Source: Syntrophales bacterium (GTDB lineage: Bacteria; Desulfobacterota; Syntrophia; Syntrophales; UBA2210). From it: a stretch of 64,000 nt of DNA. Shown in pieces: positions 52,221-56,824 of this stretch. The position numbers and the translations under genes were made by a program. The notes under the pieces were generated by a model that ran no database searches, was not told the origin of the DNA, and worked only from the letters and a program-made list of their open reading frames with translations. The stretch lies in the NCBI GenBank assembly GCA_963662405.2, contig CAXXKT010000001.1, forward strand, positions 480,001 through 544,000, read 5' to 3'. Within the stretch, counting starts at the first letter, position 1. Each line of letters begins with the position of its first letter.

Positions 52221-53294
<1,074 letters not shown>

Positions 53295-53595
53295 TTATAC
53301 AGTATTTCCATAACCTAATCAATTAAAAACAACTTCTTCGCAAAGGGAGGCATGAACAACTGCCATGAGGAGAGTAACGGGGACGATGTTCCTTCCGTCA
53401 AGGAGGTGTCACCGTCGCCCTCCCCCCTCCTGCCGACCGATATCACGAGAGCCCGGTATTGTTTCGAATCGGTTTTATATTATTGCCATATCCGGTATGT
53501 TTGTTGCCCCTATCATTCCCCAGAAAAGTATTGCATTTTGTCTGGCACTATACTACTAAAGCAACTCATTAACCTGAAAGGCAGAGAGTGAACAT

Positions 53596-55197
53596 ATGCT
53601 CCAACTGATGAGGAAACATGCCAGAAACTGGCTCATGAAGGTCGTCCTCGGTATTATTATCGTTGTCTTCGTATTCTACTTCGGCTCCATGCGGGGGCGG
53701 CAGGCTACCGAAACAGTCGCCTTACTGGATGGCTCACAGATAGCGTACGCGAATTTCAGAACGGAATATCAGAATCTGCTCGATTTCTACCGCCAGCAAT
53801 ACGGGGAATACCTGACCGACGATTTGATCAAGAAGATCAATATCAAGCAGCAGGCATTCGACAACATCGTCAATAAGGCGATCATCCTGTCAAAGGCCGA
53901 CGAGCTGAAGCTGGACATCAGCGATAACGAACTCAAGACAGCCATTTTTTCCTATCCGGCCTTTCAGCGGAACGGCGTCTTCGACAGCGATCTGTACCAG
54001 CGCGCCCTTCGCTATCAGCGGATGACTCCGGAAACGTTCGAGGCATCGCAACGCGAGGCCATGAAGATCGGGAAGATTGAGCAGATCATCAGAGAATCGG
54101 CAAAGGTATCGGAAGAGGAAGTGTATGAAATATACCAACTCCAGAGCAGGGAGATCACCCTGGATTTCATACGAATCCCCATAGACAGCGTCACCACGAC
54201 GGAAAACCCGCCCGAGGAGGCACTGGAGGCATACCTTGAAGGGCATGCCGAGGACTTTCGGATCCCCCCGACGGCAACGATCGAATACATCCCTTTCACG
54301 GGGGAAGCCTTCACCGAAACCGCCGACATATCGGACAATGAGATAGAGGACTACTACGAGTACAACAAAGACGAATTTACCACGGGTGAAACAACGAAAC
54401 CCCTGGCCGAGGTACGGGAAGAAATCGTCGCGAAACTGGCATCGATTCAGGGAATGGATCAGGCCTTTGAAGAAGCAACAACGGCACACGATACGATCTA
54501 TCAAGAGGACAATTTCGAGGAATACGCCACAAAGCGGGGGCTTAAAATCGAGTCCGCCGAGCTTGCCCGCAACGCCCCCCTCACCGGTCGGCTTGCCGGT
54601 GTTCAGGACGACCTGGGCAATTACGTATTCAGCCTGCAAGAGGGTGATCTTGGACACGTTTTTTCCGACAAGGAGGGGTATTACGTCTTCAGGGTCGCTT
54701 CACTGAAGCCGACCCGTATCCCCGCGCTTCGAGAGGTTGTGAAAGAGGTGCAAGAAAGCTATATCCTGACACAGGCCGCACAGGCAAGCAAGACGAAGGC
54801 CGACGATATTCTCCGCCGTCTCAGGGATGGAGCGGATATGGCGAAGGTCGCACAGAAAGAGGGACTGACGATTGGCGAAACCGGCCTGTTTCTCCCCGGA
54901 CCCGAGATCCCTCAAATCGGCTATTCTCCGGACATGGGAAAGACCCTCTTTGAACTATCGGGAGAAAAGCCCTATCCGAACAGGATCTTCCTTATCGAAG
55001 GGAATTATGTGATTGCCAAGTTTCGAGGGAAGAGCATGCCGGACGAGGAAGACTGGAAGGCCAAGAAGGACTCACTGAAGCGGGATATCCTGAGCATGAA
55101 AGAACAGCAGTACTTTCTCTCGTGGGTGGAGAAAATGAGGAAAACAATGATCGACGAGGGACGATTGAAGATCCTCAAGAGGCTGGAAGACCTGTAA
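53596..55197 (+). CDS. ppiD: SurA_N-domain membrane-anchored chaperone (PpiD-like)
   Basis: MLQLMRKH + TM; PAFQRNGVFD...Y...L; the parvulin region appears shortened. Confidence 0.8.
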   Translation: MLQLMRKHARNWLMKVVLGIIIVVFVFYFGSMRGRQATETVALLDGSQIAYANFRTEYQNLLDFYRQQYGEYLTDDLIKKINIKQQAFDNIVNKAIILSKADELKLDISDNELKTAIFSYPAFQRNGVFDSDLYQRALRYQRMTPETFEASQREAMKIGKIEQIIRESAKVSEEEVYEIYQLQSREITLDFIRIPIDSVTTTENPPEEALEAYLEGHAEDFRIPPTATIEYIPFTGEAFTETADISDNEIEDYYEYNKDEFTTGETTKPLAEVREEIVAKLASIQGMDQAFEEATTAHDTIYQEDNFEEYATKRGLKIESAELARNAPLTGRLAGVQDDLGNYVFSLQEGDLGHVFSDKEGYYVFRVASLKPTRIPALREVVKEVQESYILTQAAQASKTKADDILRRLRDGADMAKVAQKEGLTIGETGLFLPGPEIPQIGYSPDMGKTLFELSGEKPYPNRIFLIEGNYVIAKFRGKSMPDEEDWKAKKDSLKRDILSMKEQQYFLSWVEKMRKTMIDEGRLKILKRLEDL

Positions 55198-55200
55198 CCC

Positions 55201-55509
55201 ATGAAGGCAGCACGAACAGCACTCGTTATTTATACCTGCGTCATGTTCACCGTCCTCGCGCAGGGCTCCCCCGCCGCCGAGAGGACCTATGCCCTCACGG
55301 TATCCGGATGCTGGGGGTGATCGGGAAAGGCCAGGATAAGGTCTATCCTGAAGAAGAGCCCGGGCATTATCGATTTTCAGATGGACGCGGAGAATTCCAC
55401 TATTACTGTACGCTTCGAGGACCAGACGGTGGCGATCGGCGAGATCGTTGAGAAGATCTTGGAACGCAAGTTCGAGGTACAGGCGATGACCGAGCTTGCC
55501 ACCGAATAA
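55201..55509 (+). CDS. putative exported heavy-metal-associated (HMA) domain selenoprotein with a CxxU motif
   Basis: 102 aa if TGA 55318-55320 is read as Sec: signal peptide, then TYALTVSGCWGUSGKARIRSILKKSPGIIDFQMD...ITVRFED; SECIS-like hairpin follows. Confidence 0.8.
55332..55350 (+). promoter_or_regulatory. bacterial SECIS-like hairpin
   Basis: caggata-aggtc-tatcctg begins 11 nt after the TGA. Confidence 0.75.
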
Positions 55510-55558
55510 GGAAGGTCCTTCGCCCCCCCAACAGCGCCGCGCCTTCTCCCGAACAGGA

Positions 55559-56824
55559 TCAGACTCGACCCTGTTCCTCGCCACCTTCGGCCGCCGATCT
55601 GCCCGCGAGCCACCCGGTGGAGAAGGCCGCCTGAAGATTGTATCCTCCCGTGTCGGCATCCACGTCCATGACCTCACCCGCGAAGAAGAGCCCTTCCATG
55701 CGACGCGACGCCATTGTCCGGGGATCAATTTCATTTGTGTTGATTCCTCCGGCCGTTACGATCGCCTCGGCAATGGGGCGGACCCCCGTTACCTCCAAAC
55801 AAACCCCCTTGAGCCACCCCCGCAGGCGTCCCCGTTCTTCCGCGGTGATCTGGTGCCCTCTCCGATCCGGGGGGATATGTACCTGTTCGGCACACAGGGG
55901 AATCAGCTTCGCGGGGAGGAGCCCCTTGAGGAGGGTCTCGAATTTTCGTTTTCCATGGAGATCAAAATCGCGGAGGAGCCGCCCATCCATGGCACGTTCA
56001 TCGAGGGCGGGTTTCAGATCGATGGAAACGGCTACCTTCTTCCCCTCATCGAGGACATCAGCGATCTCTCCGCTCAGGGTAAGGATCACCGGTCCGGAGA
56101 GGCCGAAGTGCGTGAAGAGCATTTCCCCGAATGCCTCGGCGCGTTTTTTCCCCTCGACAAGCATCGTCACATTCACGTTGCGCAGGCTGAGGCCCTGGAG
56201 ACGCGGTGCCACGTCTCCCTTTGTCTCCAAGGGGACGAGGGCGGGACGGGGCGACGCGACGGCATGTCCCACGGAAACAGCGAGACGATAGCCGTCTCCG
56301 GTCGAACCCGTCGCGGGATATGACATCCCCCCTGTCGCGATAATGACGGCGTCTGCCGGGTACTCTTTCCCCCCGGCATCACGGATACCGCGCACCTGCC
56401 GCCCGTCAGTCAGAAGAGATTCAACGACCACCCCGTTACGCACCGTTACGCCCTGCGCGCGCATCCATTGTGTCAAGGCGTCCACCACGTCGTACGCCCG
56501 GCCGCTCGCCGGGAAGACCCTCCCCCCCCGCTCGACGACGGTGGGGACCCCCAGTCCCTCGAAGAATGCCACGAGGTCATTGTTCGAAAAGCGGTGGAAG
56601 GCCTGCCGGAGAAAGGGCCCGGTAGGACCAAAGTGCGAGACGAACTCGACGGTGGAGGCCACGTTGGTGAGGTTGCACCGCCCCTTTCCCGTAATTGCGA
56701 GCTTACGCCCAGGGCGGGGCATCTTCTCCAGGAGGAGTGTCCGTGCCCCCATGGCGGCGGCCTGTCCGGCGGCCATCATGCCGGCCGGCCCCCCTCCGAC
56801 AACTATGACGCCCCTTATTCCCAT
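55559..56824 (-). CDS. HI0933/BaiN family flavoprotein
   Basis: GGGPAG, TGKGRCNLTN, GSTGDGY and TGGYNLQAAFSTG motifs. Confidence 0.93.
   Translation of the reverse strand: MGIRGVIVVGGGPAGMMAAGQAAAMGARTLLLEKMPRPGRKLAITGKGRCNLTNVASTVEFVSHFGPTGPFLRQAFHRFSNNDLVAFFEGLGVPTVVERGGRVFPASGRAYDVVDALTQWMRAQGVTVRNGVVVESLLTDGRQVRGIRDAGGKEYPADAVIIATGGMSYPATGSTGDGYRLAVSVGHAVASPRPALVPLETKGDVAPRLQGLSLRNVNVTMLVEGKKRAEAFGEMLFTHFGLSGPVILTLSGEIADVLDEGKKVAVSIDLKPALDERAMDGRLLRDFDLHGKRKFETLLKGLLPAKLIPLCAEQVHIPPDRRGHQITAEERGRLRGWLKGVCLEVTGVRPIAEAIVTAGGINTNEIDPRTMASRRMEGLFFAGEVMDVDADTGGYNLQAAFSTGWLAGRSAAEGGEEQGRV

Follow-up and report, generated by a model that had tools for sequence, protein, structure and literature searches.

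A predicted exported selenoprotein of Syntrophales with an HMA fold and a Cys/Sec pair probably out of register with the canonical metal-binding motif

The 64,000-nucleotide stretch of a Syntrophales genome analysed here, referred to below as the window, was found to carry a gene predicted to encode a 102-aa selenoprotein (55201..55509, plus strand), which consists of a signal peptide and an HMA/MerP-like domain and in which the TGA at codon 40 is read through. Judging from alignments and a predicted model, the selenocysteine (Sec) and its partner cysteine are probably out of register with the GMxCxxC motif typical of HMA domains, and a redox role in the periplasm appears possible for this pair.

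Gene Structure and Database Representation

The reading frame extends from the ATG at 55201 to the TAA at 55507-55509, and its sole internal stop is the TGA at 55318-55320. A single frame of this extent, with TGA at codon 40 in the context C-W-G-TGA, had been described in an earlier note on this DNA and was confirmed, with a length of 102 codons. The residues around the TGA read V-S-G-C-W-G-U-S-G-K-A-R-I, so that the active-site loop comprises C37-W38-G39-U40. Cys37, the partner of Sec, is encoded by TGC (55309..55311, plus strand) and is present in 73 of the 81 family genes. The codon of the predicted selenocysteine 40 (55318..55320, plus strand) is TGA in 94 of 102 profile matches, and Cys occupies this position in some orthologs.

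A gene coding for a ppiD-like periplasmic chaperone with SurA_N and rotamase domains (53596..55197, plus strand) ends 3 nt upstream of the selenoprotein gene, and the two are probably co-transcribed. No terminator-like site was detected on the plus strand across 53200-55800, and promoter and terminator scans around the gene gave results at chance level. On the other side, the gene of an HI0933-family flavoprotein (55559..56824, minus strand) is convergent with the selenoprotein gene and serves as context only. The region 55000-55800 shows zero differences from a 12.7-kb contig of one sequencing run (run X1, possibly the source sample); among the contigs from three runs of a second study, none spans the selenoprotein gene.

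Database copies of the gene are fragments: one entry (P0005) corresponds to residues 61-102, and another (P0036) to residues 1-38 of a relative, as expected from the earlier suggestion that standard gene callers truncate the gene. TGA-bearing members are present in database entries as fragments only, or with Trp replacing Sec. Trp was found at the Sec position in 61 of 65 database hits; since it occupies that position in none of the 81 family genes read as DNA, it probably represents TGA called under table 4.

Selenocysteine Machinery and Translation of the TGA Codon

The genome (three contigs, 100% complete) contains selA, selB, selD, and a tRNA-Sec gene (selC, 75.6 bits). The selD gene (L018, C3:552135-553065) has an in-frame TGA of its own, and 11 nt after it begins a stem whose 5-nt loop has G at position 2. 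In the assembly, selD also carries a 1-nt insertion in a G run; this frameshift is an assembly error, because the insertion is missing in contigs from three of the four runs, representing two studies.

TGA is the commonest stop codon of ORFs of at least 400 aa in this genome (443 of 1036), and the genome is therefore not recoded for Trp. It is also the terminal stop in 18 of the 74 TGA-bearing family genes. The internal TGA is followed by 56-109 codons in 69 of 70 genes, the remaining gene ending at a contig end. In a comparison of 16 close genes, pN downstream of the hairpin was 0.26 versus a pS of 0.64, and therefore the sequence beyond the TGA is selected as protein. The conserved in-frame TGA is very likely translated as selenocysteine. 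Insertion of Sec via SelB-tRNA(Sec) at the hairpin located 11 nt downstream, followed by export of the protein to the periplasm, would almost certainly be the route to the mature product.

The earlier note had proposed to look for sel genes in the genome and for Cys or TGA at position 40 of the homologs, and had named the lack of sel genes, homologs with non-Cys residues at this position, and missing downstream conservation as outcomes that would speak against a selenoprotein. All four genes, selA to selD, are present, most homologs carry TGA or Cys as detailed below, the downstream sequence is conserved, and none of the three adverse outcomes was found.

The SECIS-Type Hairpin

A bacterial SECIS-type hairpin (55332..55350, plus strand) overlaps codons 44-50. 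Its 7-bp stem, formed by pairing of 55332-55338 with 55344-55350, consists of Watson-Crick pairs only and starts exactly 11 nt past the TGA, in agreement with the earlier description; the 5-nt loop, AGGUC, has G at position 2 and lies 18 nt after the UGA. The E. coli fdhF SECIS carries an AGGUCU apex at a comparable distance from the UGA. The fdhF-like apex emphasised in the earlier note is, nevertheless, not a family feature, since AGGUCU was found in 3 of 70 family genes only; what is kept instead is a G in the first two loop positions (69 of 70), and the usual loop is AGUUC or GGUUC. No match to a SECIS family of Rfam was obtained at E<=10.

All geometry criteria of the published bSECIS model, in the portion of the source available (PMC13188914), agree with this hairpin: a loop of 3-9 nt, a stem of 4-16 bp, G in the first two loop positions, and a loop 16-37 nt after the UGA. 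The same portion gives a free-energy limit of <= -7.5 kcal/mol (PMC13188914), and the isolated 19-nt hairpin, at -7.1 kcal/mol, is slightly weaker. Upon folding of the 40-nt region from the UGA, a different structure was favoured (-14.9 kcal/mol). The pair probability of the SECIS stem was 0.46 upon folding from the UGA and 0.93 upon folding from +10; the first 9 nt after the UGA would likely be covered by a ribosome sitting at this codon.

Under a loose definition (7-bp stem at +11 or +14, G-U pairs allowed), such stems follow 429 of 140,218 genomic TGA triplets (0.3%), and under a strict one (Watson-Crick pairs only, G in the first two loop positions, +11 or +14), 20 of 140,218 (0.014%). Within the family, a hairpin in the fixed register with at least 6 of 7 pairs is present in 69 of the 74 TGA genes versus none of the 7 non-TGA genes, and four of the five TGA genes failing this criterion form one divergent branch; the Sec recoding and SECIS proposed in the earlier note are supported. 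Among 26 distinct close sequences, 98.9% of cells are paired, a figure inflated by relatedness, versus at most 45% for slid partners, and two hairpin pairs show two-sided changes. Synonymous differences amount to 0.21 at codons 45-50 versus 0.58 in the rest of the domain, and codon 45 is AGG in 66 of 70 genes. Judging from these sequence comparisons, the hairpin is under selection.

Distribution of the Family and Its Sec and Cys Variants

A search with the single protein revealed matches in 86 of 151 related genomes, and a 30-sequence profile (E<=1e-9) yielded 102 matches in 88 of them, including 94 with in-frame TGA in 83 genomes. The selA gene was found in 142 of the 151 genomes; two TGA carriers had no selA match (G023 and G143, 92% and 84% complete, respectively), and both have selB. 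In a 401-genome sample of the phylum, strong TGA-bearing matches came mostly from the same order, with some in five other families; the lower-scoring matches consisted largely of MerP-like proteins of the ordinary kind and of HMA domains from ATPases. A Smithellaceae genome is given as the source of one Cys member, and the atlas clusters belong to Thermodesulfobacteriota. A single-protein pattern scan of genome contigs gave three matches, short and unrelated, and a phmmer search of cluster representatives returned mostly long proteins matching residues ~20-60.

Altogether, 81 distinct family genes were read as DNA, 74 with TGA and 7 without. The former comprise 56 genes with CxxU, 14 with CxU, and 4 with no partner Cys, and the latter three Cys forms and four genes with neither Cys nor Sec. 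Cys at the Sec position occurs as CRPC (L058/P0054), CLSC (P0058), and CADC (L084), and CxC was found in P0031 and L108. A relative with a 98% complete genome (G070) carries a C-R-P-C form with no hairpin at a maf/yggS-manC locus, which is syntenic with loci holding TGA forms in its relatives; matches to selA, selB, and tRNA-Sec (selC) are all absent from this genome. On a quick tree (96 distinct rows by 75 columns, hairpin-constrained columns kept, only coarse splits used), the Cys forms are nested within Sec branches.

Several unusual members were recorded in the course of this survey. Four genes of a divergent branch (L070-L073), from two other families of the phylum, carry one Sec only (GVVUGST), and their hairpin is shifted to a different register. 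Four others (L104-L107) lack both Cys and Sec in the loop, their genomes keep selA, and L104-L106 are located at the yggS locus. Genome G141 has two tRNA-Sec matches over the cut-off (C2:104728-104823 and C3:152722-152815), together with a Sec copy and a Cys copy of the gene. The database protein P0028, with a signal peptide and three HMA repeats reading GMTW, is possibly a miscalled triple-Sec protein.

Export Signal and Fold

A Sec/SPase I signal peptide was predicted at 55201..55275 (plus strand, about residues 1-25), with cleavage near PA/AER and with no lipobox or Tat motif. Simple heuristics applied to the 81 family genes detected a hydrophobic 10-mer of at least 2.0 in all of them, consistent with the exported location proposed earlier, and Ala at position 25 in 73, with a lipobox and a Tat motif in none.

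Residues 27-99 (55279..55497, plus strand) form a predicted HMA domain with the order beta-alpha-beta-beta-alpha-beta and an AlphaFold2 pLDDT of about 90; the same order was obtained with AlphaFold2 for 30 sequences, with a mean pLDDT of 79.7. A Foldseek search with the predicted model returned Atx1, CopZ, and MerP, matches to CopA domains were also obtained, and VIA aligned 72 residues with 1fvq (Z 11.5, rmsd 1.4 A). The fold of the window protein is predicted to be HMA (Atx1/CopZ/MerP), as the earlier note had assumed. The predicted model is not a thioredoxin fold, and likeness to thioredoxin-fold selenoproteins lies in motif logic alone.

No curated family cut-off was reached by the window protein. 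It scored 21.7 with the Pfam HMA model (PF00403) against a gathering threshold of 24.8, which some relatives pass (e.g., 33.9), and at E<=0.1 all 30 family members match this model. With the MerP model TIGR02052, the top-scoring NCBIfam model for most diverse members, it obtained 19.6 bits against a cut-off of 92.55, the family best being 63.7 bits among the 30 and 12 sequences scanned (one in both sets). Its score with NF041115 was 14.3 bits (cut-off 95; family best 39.8), and the family best with NF045683 was 36.7 bits (cut-off 375). No NF041115 match was found in its own genome at E<=1e-12.

Register of the Cys/Sec Pair

In the canonical HMA site, the Met is not a ligand and the second Cys lies in the first turn of helix 1. 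In an ungapped alignment of the family profile with B. subtilis CopA over 73 positions, C37 is matched with the Met of GMTCAAC and G42 with the second Cys, and U40 comes one residue past the first Cys. Structural alignment of the predicted model to 1opz, covering 76 of 76 residues, gave the same offset. Only hhalign brought CxxU onto CxxC, via compensating 2-residue gaps on each side and with Met-Thr still missing. The ungapped register is the more parsimonious reading, so that an offset of the Cys/Sec pair from GMxCxxC is probable; the earlier equation of CxxU with the HMA CxxC pair was therefore not sustained by the ungapped alignments.

Not one of the 81 family genes retains GMxCxxC. For the CxU and no-Cys branches, the Sec coincides exactly with the first Cys of the HMA site, and the position of the second Cys is Thr, giving UxxT, in 16 of 18 CxU/xxU genes. 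In the CxxU branch, to which the window gene belongs, Thr was found there in 1 of 54 genes, and the residue is mostly Gly.

Genomic Context

The ppiD gene is located upstream in 16 of 49 loci and the HI0933 gene downstream in 15 of 49, the ppiD context being restricted to two genera of the same family; maf, yggS, and manC flank 9, 10, and 11 other loci of the 49, respectively. The loci are of housekeeping type and follow taxonomy. The earlier observation that no mer/cop neighbours are present at the window locus was corroborated, and no merT lies beside the gene. The name 'metal chaperone' given in that note found no backing: no acceptor is linked to the gene, MerT was found in 2 of the 151 related genomes only, the genome of the window not being among them. 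The sole other HMA match in this genome is an ArsP-type permease with a canonical HMA domain fused to its C-terminus (L124:352-1683, plus strand), ~11 kb from selA.

Metal or metalloid genes were noticed near three loci, namely L108 (Cys form; ArsP permease and DUF2703), L109 (Sec-bearing P-type ATPase), and L121 (probable P-type ATPase end). Redox neighbours include a pyridine nucleotide-disulfide oxidoreductase and cytochrome bd at L086, rhodanese and a C-GCAxxG-C-C protein at L092, thioredoxin at L103, and rubrerythrin at L109 and L118. Both groups were picked by eye with no background rate, and most loci have housekeeping neighbours (ppiD, maf/yggS, manC). The ATPase at L109 (12949-15255, minus strand, genome G059), with GMTUASC in its HMA domain, is the Sec form of a listed family and lies 1.1 kb from the family gene.

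In four genomes of one genus, a signal peptide and a CxU HMA domain are fused to a C-terminal thioredoxin-like domain (L095:5490-6230, L096:5103-5837, L139:1467-2198, and L140:2438-3175, all minus strand), with Thioredoxin_9 over the cut-off in three of the four. The motifs of the fused domain are WCPDS, WCKDA, WSPDS, and WSDDS, i.e., two lack the thioredoxin Cys. The fusion, as known from the genomes read, is probably a single event in this genus. The genome of the window has no Thioredoxin_9-like match to the fused domain at E<=0.01.

A tie to the sel cluster was considered and rejected as not general: selA is on the same contig in G059, G061, and G122, yet 5-21 kb away, and selB is beside L105. 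The genome of the window also contains hgcA over the NCBIfam cut-off (C2:138159-139148), and from this gene the organism is likely a mercury methylator.

Possible Functions

On the sequence data, one could tentatively propose that the Cys37/Sec40 pair is a periplasmic thiol/selenol redox site and not a MerP-type metal hand-off site; among the readings considered, this one edges out metal binding. It is favoured by the loss of the second HMA Cys and the UxxT of the CxU/xxU genes, and by the presence of UxxT, CxU, and CxxU among motifs of redox-type selenoproteins in the available part of Table 1 of PMC13188914. The L070-L073 genes have Sec with no partner Cys and therefore form no two-chalcogen metal site by themselves, and the Cys-Sec spacing varies in the rest of the family. 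The thioredoxin-like fusion, the oxidoreductase, rhodanese, thioredoxin, and rubrerythrin genes near some loci, the rarity of MerT, and the taxonomy-following loci point in the same direction. In addition, 15 of 17 families with Cys-to-Sec conversion are homologs of thiol redox proteins, according to the part of PMC1794560 available.

However, the protein shares its fold, signal peptide, and size with MerP, and the top structural matches are all HMA domains, most of which belong to metal chaperones and metal ATPases. The UxxT motif and the fusion come from sister branches and not from the CxxU branch of the window, the suggestive neighbours were chosen by eye among a majority of housekeeping loci, and the register shift was deduced from ungapped alignments and a predicted model, while hhalign prefers the in-register placement with two gaps. 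The chalcogen-free L104-L107 fit neither a redox nor a metal function.

If the pair is a redox site, its origin and action could be envisaged as follows. In a MerP-like ancestor with GMxCxxC, the first HMA Cys would have been converted to Sec and the second lost, becoming Thr in the CxU/xxU branches and mostly Gly in the CxxU branch, with a new Cys arising at the position of the Met. SelB-tRNA(Sec) would bind the hairpin 11 nt downstream and insert Sec, and the signal peptide would carry the chain to the periplasm. There, the selenolate, exposed where helix 1 begins, may attack a disulfide, persulfide, or peroxide; Cys37 would then resolve the product to a selenenylsulfide, which a thioredoxin-like partner could re-reduce.

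Alternatively, the protein could be a stand-alone soft-metal binder that acts in the periplasm as a buffer or as a scavenger of trace metals. Cys37 and Sec40 would hold Cu(I), Ag(I), Hg(II), or a similar ion between them, the selenolate would compete with sulfide, and no dedicated MerT-type partner would be involved. This reading, held with somewhat less confidence than the redox one, is a serious contender in view of the HMA fold and MerP architecture, the best NCBIfam scores being to MerP, and the location of both chalcogens on what is the metal-binding loop of HMA domains, where hhalign is able to place CxxU on CxxC. HMA selenoproteins named as metal-binding exist (NF041115, NF045683), and three loci are near metal or metalloid genes. 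It accords poorly with the loss of GMxCxxC throughout the family, with the single-Sec and chalcogen-free members, with the scarcity of MerT and of adjoining metal transporters at most loci read, and with a vertical, housekeeping-type distribution, which seems unlike that of resistance genes.

A structural or protein-binding function in the periplasm, to which the Cys/Sec loop would be accessory (e.g., as a redox switch), is unlikely. Four members whose loop is devoid of Cys and Sec, including the three at the yggS locus, still have a signal peptide and resemble the family at the level of the fold, and protein-binding HMA domains are among the structural matches; however, 94 of 102 matches retain Sec together with its SECIS, which comes at a cost to the coding sequence. 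A helper role in mercury methylation, in which syntrophs with hgcAB would use the Sec of the periplasmic protein to capture Hg(II) or methylmercury, is very improbable. The genome of the window has hgcA, and the gene is present in 39 of 83 TGA-form genomes versus 20 of 68 without this form (odds ratio 2.1, p 0.03, a value overstated since kin are not independent), but 44 carriers have no hgcA, 20 hgcA genomes have no TGA form, and hgcA adjoins the gene at no locus read. Finally, a pseudogene, a sequencing error, or TGA read as Trp is scarcely credible despite the Trp of most database hits, given the stop codon usage, the lack of Trp in genes read as DNA, the pN and pS values, and the hairpin-free Cys form of G070, all described above.

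Returning to the favoured redox function, the wider picture, which we regard as conceivable but rather speculative, is that a metallochaperone fold was repurposed as a periplasmic selenium redox enzyme, passing from GMxCxxC through GCxUxxT to GCxxU, and became established throughout an order of syntrophic anaerobes, the helix 1 sequence being dictated by the SECIS itself. If so, HMA domains would be more than metal carriers, and fold-based annotation would mislead. In any case, a selenoprotein family is added that is present in 83 of the 151 genomes of the sample, which represents an order of anaerobes that are probably syntrophic. With one 75-residue domain occurring naturally in Sec, Cys, single-Sec, and chalcogen-free versions, the family offers a test set for the use of selenium in the HMA loop for metal versus redox chemistry.

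Comparison with Known Systems

To our knowledge, small exported selenoproteins are uncommon. The part of PMC13188914 available lists 119 selenoprotein families, including NF041115 (UxxU), a Sec-bearing MerT, and a UxxC P-type ATPase; none of its rows could be matched to a CxxU- or CxU-bearing HMA protein that is exported. Such a family is likewise absent from the accessible parts of PMC12013277, PMC13326102, PMC1976440, and bioRxiv 2022.07.06.499078. A survey of GOS data has a row for a Sec 'Mercuric transport protein MerP' with 2 sequences and, in the part available, no motif (PMC2398784); this row probably represents the NF041115 type. The exported CxxU/CxU HMA family is thus missing from the selenoprotein lists checked, as far as these were accessible, and the BSepDB sequences may bear on its novelty. 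No description of an HMA-domain oxidoreductase was found in the literature searched.

Among characterised proteins, MerP (TIGR02052; PDB 1osd and 1afi) has the same architecture, a signal peptide and one HMA domain in about 100 aa, with TM scores of 0.74-0.82 depending on the target. Unlike MerP, the window protein lacks GMxCxxC, carries Sec, has no merT beside its gene, and falls below the family cut-off. Atx1, CopZ, and Ccc2a (PF00403) share the fold, with a Foldseek E of 3.7e-5 to Atx1, but are cytoplasmic and carry MxCxxC.

Among Sec-bearing proteins, NF041115 (UxxU_metal_bind, 'putative mercuric reductase' with UxxU in the available part of Table 1 of PMC13188914) is also a small HMA-type selenoprotein of the same phylum, and members of this type with a signal peptide were found (L081 and L075). 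One of them, a MerP-like gene of genome G178 (L081:1477-1776, plus strand), has two TGAs (GMIUPAU) and scores 80.7 bits with NF041115 (cut-off 95). However, NF041115 keeps the GMx[CU]xx[CU] register, and the window family lies across the deepest split of the quick tree (SH-aLRT 94). The NF045683 MerT/CopZ fusion, the Sec-bearing MerT (PF02411, C/SxxU), and the P-type ATPase (UxxC) similarly have Sec in or beside HMA-type metal transport proteins, but these are membrane transporters or fusions, whereas the window protein is soluble and stand-alone, with 102 aa and no MerT part. HMA selenoproteins as such are therefore already known, and what sets the window family apart is its apparently rebuilt site and possible redox role.
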